Sequence record: OR525698.1
Strand: one strand, 5' to 3'
Length of the DNA stretch: 64,000 nucleotides
From: Escherichia phage vB-Eco-KMB43
The notes under the pieces are model-generated. The model was given only the letters and a program-made list of their open reading frames with translations, was not told the DNA's origin and made no database searches. A program made the translations under genes and the position numbers. Positions 47,895 to 57,664 of the stretch are shown here, piece by piece. Every line of letters starts with the position of its first letter. The first letter of the stretch is position 1.

Positions 47895-48296
47895 TTAAGA
47901 CAGTCGAGTGAGTTTATAAATTGTTTTAAAACATAGAGCTTTGATATCGTCTAAAACGCTCTGTAACGAGCTATCAACATCATTATAAATCTCACTAGCC
48001 ATTTGCGTTAACTCTTGCAAATAGGCAATTTCGCTAATCTCCTTGCGGACGACCAACGTTGGCTGATAACGACCAGTGATCCCAATATTGGTTTCAGTGA
48101 AATCATCAACCAATTCTTGCATTTCAAGATAGAACTCTTCTAGAGCCTTATGTTTTGCATAAGATCCAGGACCAGTTACCCCAAAATGCGCAGAATGCAT
48201 ATAAGTAACACTCATCAGACATTCACCGATAAAGCGGTCAACTTTATTAGCTTTCCCCTCTTCGGACGTCTTTCGAAAATCACTGAATTTCATGTT
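47895..48296 (-). CDS. hypothetical protein (about 133 aa)
   Basis: ATG at 48296 (MKFSDFRK) after GGAGAATCGAGAAC; track ORF has an N-terminal extension. Confidence 0.4.
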   Translation of the reverse strand, partial: NMKFSDFRKTSEEGKANKVDRFIGECLMSVTYMHSAHFGVTGPGSYAKHKALEEFYLEMQELVDDFTETNIGITGRYQPTLVVRKEISEIAYLQELTQMASEIYNDVDSSLQSVLDDIKALCFKTIYKLTRLS

Positions 48297-48582
48297 CTCG
48301 ATTCTCCATATTATGCAACATAACAAACTGTTGTGCGGCATATTCCCCCATAATAAAACACTGCTTAGAATCCATACATTTACTACGAGCATACATCTTC
48401 ATAATATGGGCATGAAATTTCTGGCTGGTTTCAATGGAAGGAGATATTTTGTTTACATATACTATCATTGCGCCGTCGAAATAATCAGTAAAGTCACCAG
48501 TTGGATCATATTGATCAGCACTGACACTTCCGACCGCAGTCAAGCATATTGCCGCTGTTAGAGTTTTACGAATAAATGACAT
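48280..48582 (-). CDS. secreted protein with signal peptide (100 aa)
   Basis: N-terminal signal-like MSFIRKTLTAAICLTAVGSVSA; TATAAATA late-promoter motif 34 nt upstream. Confidence 0.4.
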   Translation of the reverse strand: MSFIRKTLTAAICLTAVGSVSADQYDPTGDFTDYFDGAMIVYVNKISPSIETSQKFHAHIMKMYARSKCMDSKQCFIMGEYAAQQFVMLHNMENREHEIQ

Positions 48583-49775: not shown

Positions 49776-49978
49776 TTACATTTAGGGCAATGCGGTTCTT
49801 TAATATAATACCCGTCTGTCTTTGGAACACTAACAGGAGCGGTTTTTATATTGTATTCAGTGAAACAACGAAAACAAGTTACGTTTTCTACAGACTGACG
49901 TTTCACCCAATCACCGGAATATAGATCATTTTTATTTGTCATATTCAACCACCACAATGTTAATGTCTGGAGTAGCAA
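49748..49978 (-). CDS. zinc-ribbon protein (76 aa)
   Basis: CFRCF...CPKCKC. Confidence 0.3.
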   Translation of the reverse strand: MLLQTLTLWWLNMTNKNDLYSGDWVKRQSVENVTCFRCFTEYNIKTAPVSVPKTDGYYIKEPHCPKCKCRLYWSHL

Positions 49979-50387
49979 TATTAATGATCTCTTCTACACA
50001 TTCCCACTCAAGGCCACCGATACCGCAACCGATTTTAGGAATATAGAAAGGCTGTATAGCACCTTCAAAAACATCATTGATAGTCTCAAATCCTTTCAGG
50101 ATAGCACCATATTCAGCATTTGGACCCGGTCGGAATTGGGTATAGAGATTCACCCCGCACCAGTTATAACCATTAACTTGATGCGTCCAGACACTAAACC
50201 CACCCAGCTTTTCTACCTTACCGCGAGAAGTTTGCTTGTCAATCTCTAACGCTTGCGGGAACTCTTTCGCGATCTTTGCAGCAATACCAGCGCCCATAGT
50301 ATGAAAACAATTACAACCATGAATTAAATGACCGTTTCCTTGTTTAAACAGGGCGATGAGATCGCCCTTTACAGTATCAATAATCAT
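49932..50387 (-). CDS. macro domain protein, TARG1/DarG-like (ADP-ribose hydrolase family)
   Basis: 151 aa; LIHGCNCFHTMGAGIAAKIAKEFP matches the H-C-x-x-x-M-G-A-G-I-A signature of TARG1-type macro domains. Confidence 0.6.
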   Translation of the reverse strand: MIIDTVKGDLIALFKQGNGHLIHGCNCFHTMGAGIAAKIAKEFPQALEIDKQTSRGKVEKLGGFSVWTHQVNGYNWCGVNLYTQFRPGPNAEYGAILKGFETINDVFEGAIQPFYIPKIGCGIGGLEWECVEEIINIATPDINIVVVEYDK

Positions 50388-50402: not shown

Positions 50403-50762
50403 TTAGTCACGGGAAGACAACCCAGCCATAAAACGGCTTAACAGTGTGTCGCGATAAGCAAAGCATAATTGCTTATCAGGGGCAGTATCACAAAGGTTGC
50501 GTTTTGTTTTAGCAAAGCTGGCAATACTCAGATCCCATGCTCGATTTTTTCGTTTTTCGTCTCGACCTTGTTTGTATGCTTCGTCGAGTTCAAGTGCGAT
50601 AAAATCACTACACATGTTATCATCATCACAGAAAGTTTTAATGATCTTTTTGTTGATCTCAAATCCTTTGTATTCGAACTTTGGATAAGGGCGCTCATTA
50701 CTAGCAAGCGCACCAGCCGAGAACATCATAGCAATCATAGCAATTATTGTCAACTTTTTCAT
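50403..50762 (-). CDS. secreted/periplasmic protein (119 aa)
   Basis: signal peptide MKKLTIIAMIAMMFSAGALA; several Cys. Confidence 0.4.
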   Translation of the reverse strand: MKKLTIIAMIAMMFSAGALASNERPYPKFEYKGFEINKKIIKTFCDDDNMCSDFIALELDEAYKQGRDEKRKNRAWDLSIASFAKTKRNLCDTAPDKQLCFAYRDTLLSRFMAGLSSRD

Positions 50763-50769
50763 ATATTCC

Positions 50770-51360
50770 TCAATAGCGTTTAGTCTTAAGAATGCCTTTA
50801 CTCTTTAGATGGTTAGCCTTTTTTAGTACGTCATCAGCATAACCTAATCCGGCTTTATAGTTCCATCCAGCATTGTAAGAAGCTAGCGCGAGTCGGATAT
50901 TACCGTTTCGAACATCCAGCCAGTATGCTAACTCATCCATCGCGTAGAATGCAGAAACCTCGCGATTCATGATAAAGTTGATAGTCTGGCGATCACTCAT
51001 TTTAACACCGCGCTTTGCATTTTTCGCTTTCACCGTTTTAAGGTAATTTTGAAATAATCCATAAGCATGATGATTTTTCTTTGGTGCTAAGTTTGCACCC
51101 GCGCTTGATTCTTGCCATGCGATACCCGCCAGGATGTGACCTAAACCCTTTCCGTTATAGCGAATATTCGGATGGTCCTTTTTCAACTTACCGCTTTTCT
51201 CGAATTGCTCGCCGTATTGATAGGCGAAATGTAAATTATCTAGTTGGTGTGCTGTAAAGTTGTCTATCGGCGCTTTTTTGATCGGTGCGCTAGTCGATGC
51301 GTGTGTAGCACCAACGGCTAGTGACAGACTCAATACTATCGCTTTTAGAACTTTTAACAT
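50770..51360 (-). CDS. secreted lytic transglycosylase-like protein (SLT domain)
   Basis: signal peptide; AWQESS, YGLFQ and SYNAG motifs typical of the SLT family. Confidence 0.6.
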   Translation of the reverse strand: MLKVLKAIVLSLSLAVGATHASTSAPIKKAPIDNFTAHQLDNLHFAYQYGEQFEKSGKLKKDHPNIRYNGKGLGHILAGIAWQESSAGANLAPKKNHHAYGLFQNYLKTVKAKNAKRGVKMSDRQTINFIMNREVSAFYAMDELAYWLDVRNGNIRLALASYNAGWNYKAGLGYADDVLKKANHLKSKGILKTKRY

Positions 51361-52727: not shown

Positions 52728-53426
52728 CTAACCACGGGTATAGTGTTCCAGAACAACTGTCAGATGAATATATTCTAATAAATCTTTCCAAAAGTCAACA
52801 TCTGGTTCTTCCGGCATACCGTTTTTCTTTGCCTCTTCACGAGCGAGTTTAACACGCTCGTAGAGATCTTTCAATTCTTCCCGCACATTATCAAAGGTTC
52901 TTTCTCCTAACTTACACGCTAAAATAGAAGAACGTCGCGCGAGCGGGAATTGTAGATCACCTGTCTGATAGATTTCAAGTAGCTGATAACCAACACGCAG
53001 AGCATGAGAAAGATCTTTCCAGTTACTGAAATACTTTTCAGATTTGGCTACCTGCTTTTTGAGATAGCCAGACAAACCCCACATACCAACATGATAGAAT
53101 TTATCTCGATGTGTTCGGATGTATTCCCATTCTCTGGAGGATTCAATCAACATGTTACTAGGAGCGTGCACCATGTCAATAGCGCCGATATCGCCTTTAC
53201 ATGCCAGATTGATAAACCGTTTTAGACTGAACATATTAACATCAATATCGTCTTTGGTGTTCTTGATACCTTGACCGCTAGTGCTTTGGTCATAGTGTTC
53301 TTTCATCGATCCTAAGATAATTTCTTTCGCAGTCGGAACAAAGATACCACGATAATCTTTATCGGAATTTTCAGTATCAAGGCCGTATAAGTGAGATCCG
53401 AAGACCATTTTAACCATTGTATGCAT
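52728..53426 (-). CDS. polymerase-beta superfamily nucleotidyltransferase (232 aa)
   Basis: N-terminal FGSHLYGLDTENSDKDYRGIF fits the GS-x(9-13)-DxD minimal NTase signature. Confidence 0.55.
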   Translation of the reverse strand: MHTMVKMVFGSHLYGLDTENSDKDYRGIFVPTAKEIILGSMKEHYDQSTSGQGIKNTKDDIDVNMFSLKRFINLACKGDIGAIDMVHAPSNMLIESSREWEYIRTHRDKFYHVGMWGLSGYLKKQVAKSEKYFSNWKDLSHALRVGYQLLEIYQTGDLQFPLARRSSILACKLGERTFDNVREELKDLYERVKLAREEAKKNGMPEEPDVDFWKDLLEYIHLTVVLEHYTRG

Positions 53427-53469
53427 AATTAAACCCTCAGTTGATTAAGAGATTGCATCATATCATCAT

Positions 53470-53500
53470 AAAACGAAAAAGCCAACCCTTTTCGGATTGG
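53470..53500 (-). terminator. rho-independent terminator after grcA
   Basis: AGCCAATCC-GAAAA-GGGTTGGCT hairpin then TTTTTCGTTTT. Confidence 0.6.
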
Positions 53501-53512
53501 CTTGATGAAAAA

Positions 53513-53929
53513 TTAGAGAGATTCGGTAAAGGTACGAGCGATAACATCACGTTGCTGGTCTGGAGTCAGACTATTGAAGCGCACTGCGTAACCAGAAACG
53601 CGAATTGTAAGCTGCGGGTACTTCTCAGGATGTTCAACAGCGTCCAGCAACATTTCTCGTAACAATACGTTAACATTCAAATGCTGACCACCTTCGACAA
53701 CCGGAGCACCATTATCTACAATCACCGGACGGAAGCTAGTTGTGTGCAGTGCCAGCGAATCGACGTCTTCTGCGGTGATCACATGGTCTTCTGCGAAAGT
53801 TTTACTAACAATTACTTTAGCGCCGATCAGTGCTTTCGGTTCGGATACCAGAATCATAGGCGCGAAGTGTCCACCAATAATAGTACCTTTATGTTCACCT
53901 TTCATGATTTGAATTGCTTTAAATTCCAT
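53513..53929 (-). CDS. grcA: autonomous glycyl radical cofactor, GrcA/YfiD-like
   Basis: C-terminal [11 protein letters not shown]...[39 protein letters not shown] is near-identical to E. coli YfiD. Confidence 0.85.
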
Positions 53930-54064: not shown

Positions 54065-54556
54065 TTAGTTGATACCTAAGCCAATGAAAATAGGTTGGTC
54101 TTCTACATTACCCATCCCAACACTAAGTCGATTTACTTCTAAAAACTGCAATACGCTGTCAGTAAATCCGCGCATGGTAGTATCTAGGATAAAAATTGTT
54201 TTGTCAAGACTACGACCTCGCCATGTGATCGGATTCAGGAAAGTTCGGATCGACGTACAATCTACATTTGAAATATTTACATTTTCACCGCGACCGCGAT
54301 CTCGGATCGTTTTGGCATGTCCCCGCGTCGTTGAAACGATAAAGACACTATAGCCTTTTCTCGTATAATGGTCATATAACTTGATTGTAGCGTCTGTATG
54401 CCCTGTCTGACGGCCTAAATTGATTGAGACAATGGAATCTAGGTCATCAGCAAAATTGCGTCGCTTACGGCGTTCTATGATGCAATTTACGGCAGAAATA
54501 CACGCAGCATAAATCAAATCTTTACTTTCTAATTCTAAATCAATGTCAATATTCAT
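54065..54556 (-). CDS. hypothetical protein (163 aa)
   Basis: ORF; basic RRKRRN patch; no motif recognised. Confidence 0.4.
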   Translation of the reverse strand: MNIDIDLELESKDLIYAACISAVNCIIERRKRRNFADDLDSIVSINLGRQTGHTDATIKLYDHYTRKGYSVFIVSTTRGHAKTIRDRGRGENVNISNVDCTSIRTFLNPITWRGRSLDKTIFILDTTMRGFTDSVLQFLEVNRLSVGMGNVEDQPIFIGLGIN

Positions 54557-54618: not shown

Positions 54619-55194
54619 TTATTTTGGATCTGGGAAATTCAATAGAGCATATTCTCCATAAAATTTCCTAGCTGCATTATCATAAGCGATTGCAGCTTCG
54701 ATTTCTGTGTCATATTGTCCAAGAACATGTCTTTGTAGGTTGACCATTATACTAGCTCTCCATTTCTTACGCAAATCCTTCCTGTTACACTTACTAACAC
54801 CCTTATACACACTAGAAAACTTTTTAGACTTCTTCTTTCTATTATGTTGATTTTGCGCGTCGGTTGCCTCCCTAAGATTTGGAGGATTGTTATTAGCAGG
54901 ATTACCGTCAATATGATCAATTAATCTAACTTGCGTCCCATGTTCTAGAAACCAAACAACCCTATGCACGAATAAATGAACTCTAGGAAGACCGTCATCT
55001 CTACTATGCCAAAATCGAAGATGACCATCTTTATTTGTTCTGACTTTAACTAAATCGCCGTGTTTATATCTACTCCCTAATGGTCGTCCTTTGATAGCTT
55101 TACTATCGACTCTATAATATAAGATACCCTCTATATGAGCATATCTAAGTTTTATCTCGTTTTGTAGGGATTCATCCCAATATTTAAAAGCCAT
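54619..55194 (-). CDS. HNH homing endonuclease with AP2-like domain
   Basis: HRVVWFLEHG...IDHIDGNPANNNPPNLREAT HNH motif; YKGVS...GQYDTEIEAAIAYDNAARKFYG AP2-like module. Confidence 0.75.
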   Translation of the reverse strand: MAFKYWDESLQNEIKLRYAHIEGILYYRVDSKAIKGRPLGSRYKHGDLVKVRTNKDGHLRFWHSRDDGLPRVHLFVHRVVWFLEHGTQVRLIDHIDGNPANNNPPNLREATDAQNQHNRKKKSKKFSSVYKGVSKCNRKDLRKKWRASIMVNLQRHVLGQYDTEIEAAIAYDNAARKFYGEYALLNFPDPK

Positions 55195-55239
55195 TTTATA
55201 ATCCTCACAAAGCCAGCGATTAAGCTGGCTTGATTTTAG

Positions 55240-55629
55240 TTATACCGGGTCTGGATATACCTTTTTATCGAGTTCCATATGCGGTCCGTCTTTAAAAGTA
55301 ACCCAATCAACACCGCAGATAACAGGAACACCCAATTCTCGACCAGCTTGTTTAAATGCATCCGCGATCATGCGGTAGTATTTCATGTTCCATGTATCCT
55401 TATCTTTCGGATACGCTACAACGTCAACCGCGAAACCGTGAAGATGACGAGATTTCATAGTCTTAGATTTACCTTCCGCAACATATTTCTTTTGCGTTTC
55501 TAGACTACGTACACCTTCCGTAATACCAAAATCGACCGGAGTCAGTTCTAACGCACGATGAACGACTTTTACCAGGTCAGGATGCACACCAACAAGCCGA
55601 TCTTTGCTTCTTTGAGATAATTTAAACAT
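55240..55629 (-). CDS. endolysin, L-alanyl-D-glutamate peptidase (M15/VanY-like)
   Basis: SRHLHGFAVDV...DGPHMEL zinc-binding H..D..H pattern; resembles phage T5-type endolysin. Confidence 0.7.
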   Translation of the reverse strand: MFKLSQRSKDRLVGVHPDLVKVVHRALELTPVDFGITEGVRSLETQKKYVAEGKSKTMKSRHLHGFAVDVVAYPKDKDTWNMKYYRMIADAFKQAGRELGVPVICGVDWVTFKDGPHMELDKKVYPDPV

Positions 55630-55657: not shown

Positions 55658-55849
55658 TTAGATTCCGGCGATCCTGCATAGAGTTCTTGTATTAGCACCA
55701 ATAAGGATAGCATTAACGACAACCATTCCCCAATCAACCCACGGATTATTATAAATGCTAAATCCGTTTGCTAGGCCAAATACAAGCATTCCGGTACACA
55801 TACTCAGAGCAATAATCAACATCACGGTAAAACCAAATGCAAATCTCAT
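55658..55849 (-). CDS. small membrane protein (63 aa)
   Basis: two TM helices. Confidence 0.35.
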   Translation of the reverse strand: MRFAFGFTVMLIIALSMCTGMLVFGLANGFSIYNNPWVDWGMVVVNAILIGANTRTLCRIAGI

Positions 55850-55850
55850 A

Positions 55851-56117
55851 TTATTTTCCTTTTCTCTGTTTACGTTTATAAAAGTAATACATTACCTCAT
55901 CGCGTCCGGTGATCCAACATGCTAGGGCGGTAAACAGGTTTACAATTCCCAACACACCTACGGATGCGGCGCTGTCAACAGACATAGGAACAGTAAAGGC
56001 CATAGCTAACATAGCAACGCCACAAATGACATTAAGCACCATTATAATAAGACCGAAGAAAACCATTGTCAATCCTCCGACACAAGAAAACCAACAATCA
56101 CGCCAGTGATAAGACAT
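55851..56117 (-). CDS. small membrane protein (88 aa)
   Basis: two or three TM helices, basic C-terminus. Confidence 0.35.
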   Translation of the reverse strand: MSYHWRDCWFSCVGGLTMVFFGLIIMVLNVICGVAMLAMAFTVPMSVDSAASVGVLGIVNLFTALACWITGRDEVMYYFYKRKQRKGK

Positions 56118-56260
56118 GATGCGCCGCTAATCAGACAACCCGCACCAAGTGATTCCCACCAGATCAGAGAAGCGACAATAACACAGAATCCCCACACTAC
56201 CGCAATCACAACATAGGCAAGGGTCGCCCAAAACATATATTTGTTCATAATAAATCCCAT
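56069..56260 (-). CDS. small membrane protein (63 aa)
   Basis: two TM helices. Confidence 0.3.
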   Translation of the reverse strand: MGFIMNKYMFWATLAYVVIAVVWGFCVIVASLIWWESLGAGCLISGASCLITGVIVGFLVSED

Positions 56261-56433
56261 TCACCAAACAAATAAGAAAAAAGCCATATCAACAGAAACG
56301 AGGCAATTGATCCGACAAGCAAAATGATATTAGAGAATCCGCCGTCTATCCAGGCGACAAAACAGAATACACCAGTATAGAAGCATAAACCCATTACAAA
56401 ACATACTATAAGCAACCATAGACAAAACGCCAT
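56245..56433 (-). CDS. small membrane protein (62 aa)
   Basis: two TM helices. Confidence 0.3.
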   Translation of the reverse strand: MAFCLWLLIVCFVMGLCFYTGVFCFVAWIDGGFSNIILLVGSIASFLLIWLFSYLFGEWDLL

Positions 56434-56494
56434 AGAAAGCCCTCCAGTGAGCTAATTTAGTGCGGGTAGTACATTACCCTACCCGTATTGTTAA

Positions 56495-56653
56495 TCATCG
56501 CAGAGCTTCTTCTAGCGCGATCCCAAACCATCCACAAACAACGCCCATACAGACAGCTACAAGAAGATTCATTCTCTCTTTAGGGATCATTGCAATCATA
56601 ACAACAACCATACAGAAAGCCATTACCATTGAAGTTAACATTTGTTCAACCAT
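56495..56653 (-). CDS. small membrane protein (52 aa, below ORF-track cutoff)
   Basis: hand-translated MVEQMLTSMVMAFCMVVVMIAMIPKE... Confidence 0.25.
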   Translation of the reverse strand: MVEQMLTSMVMAFCMVVVMIAMIPKERMNLLVAVCMGVVCGWFGIALEEALR

Positions 56654-56656
56654 TTA

Positions 56657-56995
56657 TCACACCTTTAAAGTCATAGACGCATAAACATTAATGCCAGGCC
56701 AGTTAGGATCGCAATTATACTCAACATCCCACAAATAAAGCGGTTTAGATGTATCAGCCAAGTTTTTAAAATCTTCTACCCACATTTCAAGGCTATATGA
56801 TGGATAAACTAGGCTATCATATCCGCCGTAACGTTGGCCTACTGGTCGGTCAGTAAAAACTACCTCAAGATCCGGTAATTCTTTTTCAAGGATAACCGCC
56901 AGCGCATAAATCAGACGGTCTTCCTTGTTACGCTGCCGAAGGACCGTTGTCAGTTGGTTTTTCTGGTTCACTAGCAAGCACCTCCACATTTTCAC
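56657..56995 (-). CDS. hypothetical protein (112 aa)
   Basis: ORF in accessory array. Confidence 0.35.
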   Translation of the reverse strand: MKMWRCLLVNQKNQLTTVLRQRNKEDRLIYALAVILEKELPDLEVVFTDRPVGQRYGGYDSLVYPSYSLEMWVEDFKNLADTSKPLYLWDVEYNCDPNWPGINVYASMTLKV

Positions 56996-57248
56996 AGAAT
57001 GAAATTTTCACAGACACAATTTTACCATAAGTGAAGAATGAATATACATTATCGAGATATTCAACGTCACCTACAATCACATCAAACTGCGGATCAGCAA
57101 CCACCGCAACATATTCTACCAGTTCATCAAGAGAATGCAACTTAATTTCATCAATTCGGCTGTATTTGGTCGCATCTTTAATTTTAAAACCAAGTTCTTT
57201 CAGCTTGTCAATCAGAATTTCACGCGGAGTTTCAAACAGTTTGCTCAT
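56928..57248 (-). CDS. hypothetical protein (106 aa)
   Basis: ORF; 3' overlap with next ORF. Confidence 0.35.
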   Translation of the reverse strand: MSKLFETPREILIDKLKELGFKIKDATKYSRIDEIKLHSLDELVEYVAVVADPQFDVIVGDVEYLDNVYSFFTYGKIVSVKISFCENVEVLASEPEKPTDNGPSAA

Positions 57249-57269
57249 AATATAATCCTCACATTAAAT

Positions 57270-57470
57270 CTAAAATTTGTTAACGACGAATTGCATAATT
57301 AGACTAATCACAAACATTGCAAACCAAGTATAAATGCAACAGATAAAAGCTACATACAATTCAATCTGGTCAGAGAATACACCGGGTAAAAGCATTAGCA
57401 AAATAACAACAGTAAAGACGCTAGCGATACCCGCAACAAAACCAATATCATTTTTACTAATCGTCATCAA
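57270..57470 (-). CDS. small membrane protein (66 aa)
   Basis: two TM helices. Confidence 0.3.
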   Translation of the reverse strand: MMTISKNDIGFVAGIASVFTVVILLMLLPGVFSDQIELYVAFICCIYTWFAMFVISLIMQFVVNKF

Positions 57471-57664
57471 GTCACCGTTTTGTAAAGAAACACAATAAAA
57501 TCCCAGACAAAAAAGACAGTGAAAATAATCATCGTCAAGACAATAAACACTGTCAGATTTTCATCGTTAGTTAATTCATGACCGTCCATCCATATAATCA
57601 CCAGATAAAACATCGAAATCAAGGAGGCGAATACCAAATTATAAAACTCTTCCTTTAATGACAT
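57467..57664 (-). CDS. small membrane protein (65 aa)
   Basis: two TM helices. Confidence 0.3.
   Translation of the reverse strand: MSLKEEFYNLVFASLISMFYLVIIWMDGHELTNDENLTVFIVLTMIIFTVFFVWDFIVFLYKTVT

Follow-up and report, generated by a model that had tools for sequence, protein, structure and literature searches.

Which enzyme degrades the host cell wall in a T4-type phage that carries no T4 e-type lysozyme in the DNA at hand, and how did the gene of this enzyme come by its 3′ end? We addressed these questions in the window, a stretch of 64,000 nt from Escherichia phage vB-Eco-KMB43 (OR525698.1). A sequence-only reading had placed a 129 aa M15-type L-Ala-D-Glu peptidase at positions 55240–55629, in the stead of an e-type lysozyme, and had proposed that several periplasm-targeted cell-wall enzymes are encoded further along. 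The best explanation of the locus as a whole, to which we assign a probability of roughly 0.8, is an M15C endolysin together with a homing-endonuclease cassette that carries the 3′ end of the endolysin gene.

A segment of 4 kb surrounding the endolysin gene is 96–98 % identical to 58 Krischvirus records (RB49, JSE, Phi1, ECD7, G2248 and others), and only 3 of ~1130 positions separate the window from phage G2248 in the cassette region. The genes are arranged as in JSE and RB49 (rI.-1, rI, tk, tk.4, vs, vs.1, regB, nrdC.11, vs.6, vs.8 and endolysin, with the HNH gene described below between the last two), and beyond the endolysin gene lies a row of small membrane-protein ORFs. Judged by these comparisons, the source of the window is a Krischvirus, that is, an RB49/JSE/G2248-like T4-type coliphage.

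The endolysin ORF (55240–55629, minus strand) runs from ATG to TAA and encodes 129 aa, with SRHLHGFAVD at residues 60–69 and DGPHMEL at residues 114–120, exactly as had been read from the sequence. The assignment to the M15 peptidases also held: the ORF matched Pfam Peptidase_M15_4 (PF13539) with 33.9 bits (cut-off 25), PHROG 465 'endolysin' (E 5.5e-63) and, in the PDB, 23ri (EndoRB49-Zn; E 2e-77) and 8q2g (LysECD7; E 3e-74). The zinc triad H-x6-D...H is present, as are the conserved Trp and, at position −3 from the final His, the catalytic Asp. The triad is formed by H62 (codon at 55444–55446), D69 (55423–55425) and H117 (55279–55281), accompanied by D114 (55288–55290) and W109 (55303–55305). 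In an alignment of 46 homologues, H62, D69, D114 and H117 were invariant and W109 was at least 90 % conserved; no zinc-ligand residue is lost in the window protein.

The structural comparison gave the same picture. The AF2 model of the endolysin (pLDDT 94.2) was matched by Foldseek to LysECD7 (8q2g) with TM scores of 0.89/0.92 and an rmsd of 1.9, which suggests that the two enzymes share one fold, and to 23ri with E 6e-19; further matches were ChiX (5opz), EndoT5 (2mxz), Ply500 and LysB4. A tblastn search with the T4 gpe sequence found no e-type lysozyme in the 64-kb window, and in the complete JSE genome the sole match to the same query was the gp5 tail lysozyme domain (E 3e-36). JSE yielded no further endolysin candidate, and the annotation of that genome includes holin t, the spanins pseT.2/pseT.3 and rI. 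We conclude from homology that 55240–55629 encodes an M15C L-alanoyl-D-glutamate peptidase endolysin that replaces the T4 e-type lysozyme, in agreement with the sequence-only reading.

The protein would be the only soluble endolysin of the phage, a single-domain, zinc-dependent enzyme that cuts the bond between L-alanine and D-glutamate in the stem peptide of peptidoglycan. H62, D69 and H117 would hold the zinc ion, D114 would be the catalytic residue and W109 would shape the active site. By a simple hydrophobicity measure combined with a (−3,−1) heuristic, the protein has neither an N-terminal hydrophobic segment nor an AXA site. Since a signal peptide is thus lacking, the enzyme would be expected to build up in the cytoplasm and to reach the wall once holin T opens the inner membrane. 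The antiholin RI would delay the holin step and the spanins would finish lysis.

The closest characterized relative is EndoRB49 (23ri), which shares with the window endolysin the genus, the genomic position, the length, the zinc triad H62/D69/H117, D114 and W109. In EndoRB49, H62 and H117 are zinc ligands together with a zinc-coordinating Asp, substitutions of W109 lower the activity, and the calcium regulation of EndoT5 is absent, the calcium-binding regulatory loop of EndoT5 being missing from EndoRB49-type enzymes (PMC10487532). EndoRB49 and LysECD7 lyse cells and cleave peptidoglycan peptide in vitro (PMC10487532, PMC8140593). EndoT5 (2mxz/8p3a) and Serratia ChiX (5opz) belong to the same M15C family with the same fold, catalytic residues and L-Ala-D-Glu specificity, at 37–48 % identity to the window endolysin; ChiX, however, is a bacterial secretion-associated enzyme, whereas the window protein is a phage endolysin. 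Because zinc site, bond specificity and structure of EndoRB49 are published, the main endolysin claim is correct yet already known, and with EndoRB49 and LysECD7 characterized, the endolysin itself adds nothing new.

Three ORFs on the minus strand had been read as secreted proteins near the endolysin gene. All three (50770–51360, 50403–50762 and 48280–48582) indeed begin with an N-terminal hydrophobic segment followed by AXA-like cleavage sites, as judged by the same kind of heuristic. The ORF at 48280–48582 (100 aa) matched PF24205 'T4-like virus antiholin family' with 82.8 bits (cut-off 27) and PHROG 1246 'lysis inhibition', is annotated as rI in JSE and adjoins tk, as in T4. By these matches it is RI, a periplasmic regulator of holin T that sets the timing of lysis, and not a wall enzyme. 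The ORF at 50403–50762 (119 aa) matched PHROG 1256 (E 1.8e-33) and is, with its annotation, an orthologue of Vs, the 'valyl-tRNA synthetase modifier'; its signal peptide is of the Sec type, and the T2 Vs orthologue also has a signal peptide.

The third ORF (50770–51360, 196 aa) is an orthologue of Vs.1, which is annotated in JSE and T2. It matched Pfam SLT (PF01464) with 26.1 bits (cut-off 21.3), so that its description as a signal-peptide-bearing SLT-domain protein stands. In 21 homologues, all starting with a signal-peptide-like segment, E84-S86, YGxFQN and SYNAG were invariant; they correspond to the E-S motif with the catalytic Glu and to the G-L-x-Q and A/S-Y-N-x-G motifs of family 1 (SLT) lytic transglycosylases. 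In sequence searches of the PDB, neither the single Vs.1 protein nor a profile of it found a significant match, the profile returning only EtgA (E 0.51). The AF2 model (pLDDT 82) gave weak Foldseek matches (E 0.02–0.8, probability 0.9–1.0, TMq 0.40–0.50), and each of the best 18 in the PDB was either a lytic transglycosylase or a goose-type lysozyme-like chitinase. The SLT resemblance was noted in 2006 as a domain match only (PMC1524935). Vs.1 is a candidate wall enzyme, and the sole one among the three secreted ORFs. The proposal of several periplasm-targeted cell-wall enzymes thus shrinks to this one candidate, with RI being a regulator of lysis timing and Vs being no such candidate.

Could Vs.1, or another protein, degrade the wall in place of the 129 aa M15 protein? 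The SLT family motifs and the signal peptide of Vs.1 would fit this. However, Vs.1 is present equally in T2 and T4, where the e lysozyme is the endolysin, and its presence is thus unrelated to the type of endolysin. Homologues of Vs.1 were found in 2033 phage records, T2 and T4-type phages with e lysozyme among them, and at only two loci in IMG/VR. The T4/T2 orthologues of Vs.1, Vs and RI lie in the same order (rI-tk-...-tk.4-vs-vs.1-regB), the window versions being 46–52 % identical to those of the T-even phages, and no functional difference between the two sets was detected. As EndoRB49 and LysECD7 act on cells and on peptidoglycan peptide in vitro, and as JSE offers no second endolysin candidate, we find it scarcely credible that anything but the M15 protein serves as the lysis endolysin.

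The 3′ end of the endolysin gene has a different history from the rest. Codons 1–103 (55321–55629, minus strand) are the native Krischvirus part: compared with reference RB49 they are 97.7 % identical at the nucleotide level, with seven synonymous and no nonsynonymous changes, so that residues 1–103 are identical to those of EndoRB49. At codon 104 the identity shifts abruptly. Codons 104–130, stop codon included, are 61.7 % identical to RB49, with 12 nonsynonymous and seven synonymous changes in 27 codons, although the two ends are collinear and of equal length. We call this divergent end (codons 104–129 and stop, ICGVDWVTFKDGPHMELDKKVYPDPV; 55240–55320, minus strand), delimited by the RB49 alignment, type B1. 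As a result, 12 of the last 26 residues differ from EndoRB49 (ICGVDWVT..HMELDKKVYPDPV in the window, EWGGDWTS..HLQLPHSKYPDPK in EndoRB49), and the window encodes VICGVDWVTFKDGP where the published EndoRB49 primers encode VEWGGDW-TSFKDGP (PMC10487532). W109, D114 and H117 are all kept within the divergent end. That the DGPHMEL end is a divergent allele tied to an adjacent homing endonuclease gene had been overlooked in the sequence-only reading.

Downstream of the type B1 end follows an intergenic spacer of 45 nt (55195–55239, minus strand), in which a hairpin (AAGCCAGC-TTAATC-GCTGGCTT, 55210–55231) precedes a GAGGA ribosome-binding site that serves the endonuclease gene. The hairpin was a hit in a terminator-like scan and is annotated as a terminator in the records of G5211 and G2248. 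A sigma-70 promoter scan around the cassette performed no better than on shuffled sequence. The spacer is followed by a free-standing gene (191 aa; 54619–55194, minus strand) that matched Pfam HNH_3 (E 2.6e-10) and PHROG 99 HNH endonuclease (E 1.4e-43), with a sub-threshold match to AP2 (25.2 bits, cut-off 33.3). We take it to be a putative HNH-AP2 homing endonuclease gene.

In reference RB49, Phi1 and ECD7 there is no HNH ORF, and the endolysin stop codon is followed by 62 nt and then by vs.8. Relative to this arrangement, an insert of 686 nt (54635–55320) stands in for 65 native nt, a net gain of 621 nt. It comprises the divergent 3′ end with its own stop codon, the 45 nt spacer and the HNH ORF. 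The right insertion junction is marked by 16 nt left over from the end of the native endolysin gene (CCCAGATCCAAAATAA, coding for ..PDPK and stop; 54619–54634, minus strand), recognized by alignment and RB49 comparison. The endonuclease ORF ends on this remnant as ...NFPDPK-stop, in the same frame as the native endolysin end ...KYPDPK-stop. The vs.8 homologue (54065–54556, minus strand), annotated in JSE and RB49, forms the right flank outside the cassette in this genome, and its diversity is at background level. The comparison with the genomes that have the native arrangement indicates that the last 26 endolysin codons are part of an HNH-AP2 homing-endonuclease cassette and not native Krischvirus sequence.

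We searched 50,697 phage records for the HNH gene and found it in 13; an endolysin with at least 99 % identity to that of the window occurs in exactly these records. The other 45 Krischvirus records have neither the HNH gene nor the B1 allele (carriers: 13/58). In public assemblies, the exact B1 protein occurred in 268 blocks, including pig-gut and other gut metagenomes, and among the matches listed the HNH gene lay downstream of it in 10/10 contigs. Most copies of the gene have an intact HNH_3 domain; degenerate copies were also found, with a frameshift in pEJ01 and a truncation in contig L125.

We compared nucleotide diversity within and between two groups of genomes, 12 carriers and 13 non-carriers. 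In the flanks, π among carriers, π among non-carriers and dxy between them were all about 0.02–0.03. In codons 104–130, π was 0.002 among carriers and 0.098 among non-carriers, with a dxy of 0.39, and all fixed differences between the two groups fell at nt 310–386 of the endolysin gene. Carriers and non-carriers were interleaved in neighbour-joining trees, whether these were built from the left or from the right flank. In a set of 20 carrier genomes, the diversity of the cassette was 2–7 times lower than that of nt 1–309 of the endolysin gene.

The cassette was also found outside the lineage of the window. The metagenomic contig L120 belongs to a sister lineage, here called X, that is normally without the HNH gene (contigs L110–L113), and holds an identical cassette. 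L120 resembles X as far as about nt 190 of the endolysin gene; the cassette and most of vs.8 resemble the window instead, after which the likeness to X returns. This separate conversion tract of ~1.3 kb has different junctions. Taken together, the polyphyletic flanks and the tract in L120 fit intronless homing with co-conversion, and the sequence comparisons strongly indicate that the cassette is mobile and spreads horizontally with co-conversion of its flanks.

The divergent end might be supposed to be unique to carriers and recoded for self-immunity. That it is unique to carriers is ruled out by type-B ends without an endonuclease gene, which we found in a search of 5.8 billion proteins: in the sister lineage (P0003; L110–L113) and in a patch allele, P0002 (L114–L117). 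P0003 is present in 81 blocks of the public assemblies. Since such ends exist, the divergent end need not have evolved 'for' immunity. The native type-B end of lineage X (VCGVDW..HIELDKKVYPDPR) has 86 % DNA identity to that of the cassette, and nt 1–282 of its endolysin gene are likewise 86 % identical to the window's. P0002 is RB49-like, carries a type-B patch at nt 285–372 and has no HNH gene. The right boundary of the patch coincides with the right junction of the cassette, and a deletion between repeated TAYCCAGAYCC motifs would yield exactly the ...KKVYPDPK-stop end of P0002. The patch may be a footprint of endonuclease-gene loss.

The alleles without endonuclease identify the endolysin 3′ end, as far as sequence comparison goes, as deeply dimorphic or as a hot spot of mosaicism (types A and B and others, e.g. 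P0008/P0010), of which the cassette bears one type-B version. For the B1 allele itself, the association with the endonuclease gene holds throughout. A tblastn search of the 50,697 phage records with the last 34 aa of the B1 end found no donor closer than Krischvirus alleles, and IMG/VR returned only ECD7 from Krischvirus; the nearest DNA found was that of lineage X (86 %). Two high-GC contigs (L028 and L029) were considered as donors and rejected, their 'ELDKKVYP' likeness being confined to the protein level and an endonuclease gene being absent. Beyond the 13 records, the nearest relatives of the endonuclease are less than 50 % identical and lie at other loci, not beside endolysins (e.g. next to gene 46 in RB16 and Slopekvirus phages).

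How would such a cassette spread? In a mixed infection, the endonuclease would cut the allele that lacks its gene, within or close to the 3′ end of the endolysin gene. Repair of the break off the cassette-bearing genome would copy in the endonuclease gene together with the divergent 3′ end, which would presumably be uncleavable and would leave the endolysin working. Intronless homing with co-conversion is known for SegF and SegG in T-even phages (references in PMC2993671). We give an even chance to the proposal that the endonuclease is an active homing enzyme, targeting the active-site-coding end of the endolysin gene and spreading as a gene-end replacement with a cleavage-resistant functional copy.

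Alternatively, the endonuclease gene could be an inert passenger, inserted once beside an existing type-B allele, and the block could have spread by ordinary recombination or by selection on the endolysin allele. Type-B ends do exist without the endonuclease, in lineage X and in P0002, features 45 nt apart stay linked under any mechanism, and some endonuclease copies are degenerate, although HNH_3 is intact in most. T4-like phages recombine very often, so polyphyletic flanks are possible without endonuclease breaks, and L120 shows general mosaicism elsewhere (e.g. at positions 300–700). On the other hand, a cassette diversity 2–7 times below that of the immediate flanks in the 20 genomes argues for recent spread, and the cassette sits on interleaved flank backgrounds. 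It has, moreover, crossed into a lineage of 86 % identity within a tract centred on the endonuclease gene. This pattern matches the intronless homing shown experimentally for SegF and SegG (references in PMC2993671), and we consider the passive spread of an inert gene unlikely.

A second alternative starts from the enzyme: the swapped C-terminal segment could be an adaptive change, for instance in stability, substrate range or regulation, which would account for the frequency of the allele, with the endonuclease hitchhiking. Residues beside the active site are indeed altered (W105C, G107V, L118M and Q119E), and the endonuclease-less alleles are unusually polymorphic at the same place (e.g. P116V and L118F), their π of 0.098 contrasting with ~0.02 in the flanks. 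However, seven of the 19 changed codons are synonymous and the nucleotide divergence is 38 %, which looks like imported foreign DNA and not like point adaptation. Furthermore, 'ICGVDW' departs from the family consensus xWGGDW, and a benefit of this is not obvious. An adaptive swap is in our estimation very unlikely to be the cause, and we retain the M15C endolysin with a homing-endonuclease cassette as the preferred reading. Activity has been published for the type A EndoRB49 protein (PMC8140593). The window allele is probably active too, given that its catalytic residues are conserved and that many isolates with this allele are viable.

The cassette resembles known free-standing endonuclease genes of T4-type phages. 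SegF (gene 56/69), SegG (gene 32) and MobE (nrdB) are likewise encoded between conserved genes and are present or absent among close relatives; the adjacent gene sequence is divergent in carriers and flanking markers are co-converted (PMC2993671 and references therein). Unlike these, the window endonuclease belongs to the HNH-AP2 class, whose genes in T4-like phages are termed 'putative' homing endonuclease genes (PMC2993671). Also unlike these, the cassette overwrites the 3′ end of its neighbour, where the catalytic site is encoded, and the displaced gene supplies the final codons and stop of the endonuclease ORF. RB49 reference and ECD7 have no homing endonuclease gene after the endolysin, in contrast to the window phage.

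A more distant parallel is the fungal mitochondrial 'hybrid gene' of Allomyces, in which a foreign copy, linked to an endonuclease ORF, took the place of the C-terminus of atp6. There, too, a mobile endonuclease ORF arrives with a foreign 3′ end that keeps the host gene functional. The Allomyces case differs in its endonuclease family and in its system, and in the window only 16 native nt remain, fused to the endonuclease ORF. Our literature search found no experimental characterization of the HNH-AP2 class or of this 191 aa protein, and no description of this cassette, which could still have been published. What appears to be new here, on the comparisons presented, is that the catalytic end of the endolysin belongs to a spreading HNH-AP2 cassette; the kind of mobile element was already known.

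For the enzymes, these results mean that Krischvirus endolysins have at least two deep C-terminal allele types beside the active site, and that the studied enzymes are of type A. LysECD7 is under development as an antibacterial, and the type B1 enzyme, common in pig and human gut metagenomes, is a natural variant of this drug-candidate scaffold. For the endonucleases, the pair of RB49 and JSE, or of RB49 and G2248, offers a simple experimental handle on the HNH-AP2 class.

If active homing is true, the high polymorphism of the target in genomes without the endonuclease (π 0.098 vs ~0.02) would fit a cycle of invasion, resistance and loss, and the P0002 patch alleles ending at the cassette junction would fit the same cycle, acting on an essential lysis gene. 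The locus would then also be the first tractable test system for HNH-AP2 phage endonucleases. The cassette would provide a clean natural example, present in many independent genomes, of a free-standing endonuclease that remodels the catalytic end of an essential late gene and does not destroy the gene.

The endonuclease gene is present as a degenerate copy in some relatives. In pEJ01 (L092/L128, 2436-3010) the free-standing HNH-AP2 homing endonuclease gene found downstream of the endolysin gene is split into two CDS by a frameshift, and in metagenome contig L125 (2936-3490) it is truncated to 184 aa. A second variable endonuclease site lies at 53427-53512, between nrdC.11 (52728-53426) and vs.6 (53513-53929). 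It is occupied in JSE, FL04, pEJ01, JK32, Whisky, phiS, MIZ4, G37-3, 011D4 and several metagenome contigs, where it holds an HNH, a NUMOD4-HNH or another homing endonuclease gene; at this site the window carries no endonuclease gene.

In the same neighbourhood, vs.8 of the window (54065-54556) has a 6-nt insertion close to its start (54539-54556), which gives a protein of 163 aa rather than 161 aa. Annotations of G2248, pEJ01, KFS-EC, G37-3 and the sister lineage X likewise give vs.8 a length of 163 aa, irrespective of the presence of the endonuclease gene. Directly upstream of the endolysin gene, at least seven small ORFs of 52-88 aa are arrayed on the minus strand (55658-57664). The majority are strongly hydrophobic and the run is kept across Krischviruses; the PHROG families represented, 15016 and 15232, are both listed as 'unknown'. 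Two further minus-strand genes, vs.6, whose GrcA-like product is a glycyl-radical domain standing alone (PF01228, E 1.5e-16), and Tk.4 (49932-50387), which encodes a macro-domain protein (PF01661), are conserved T4-like ORFs that were already known.

Vs is annotated as 'valyl-tRNA synthetase modifier'. The Vs protein of the window (50403-50762, minus strand) has a predicted canonical Sec-type signal peptide, MKKLTIIAMIAMMFSAGALA, ending before SNE, and one of the same type is predicted for Vs of phage T2 (L131, 1373-1720), namely MTKILVLCIGLISFSASASA, ending before DTSY. Such a signal peptide is unexpected in a protein whose supposed target is a cytoplasmic aminoacyl-tRNA synthetase.

Variation at the endolysin 3' end also extends to phages in which the endonuclease gene is absent. 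In L114-L117, which share endolysin protein allele P0002, an RB49-like endolysin gene carries a patch of the divergent type B at nt 285-372. The right boundary of this patch coincides with the right junction of the cassette (divergent endolysin end, spacer and endonuclease gene), and the protein terminates in KKVYPDPK. Such an end is the predicted outcome of a deletion between the repeated TAYCCAGAYCC motifs that removes the spacer together with the endonuclease gene. Among the endonuclease-less relatives L002-L004 and L098-L107, nucleotide diversity in endolysin codons 104-129 is ~4-5 times higher than in the flanks (pi 0.098 vs ~0.02), with at least four recombinant haplotypes (TS/VS at 110-111, P/V at 116 and L/F at 118); amino acids 1-103 are almost invariant in the same phages. 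The high polymorphism of codons 104-129 may stem from pressure that the endonuclease exerted in the past, or from conversion events that recurred.
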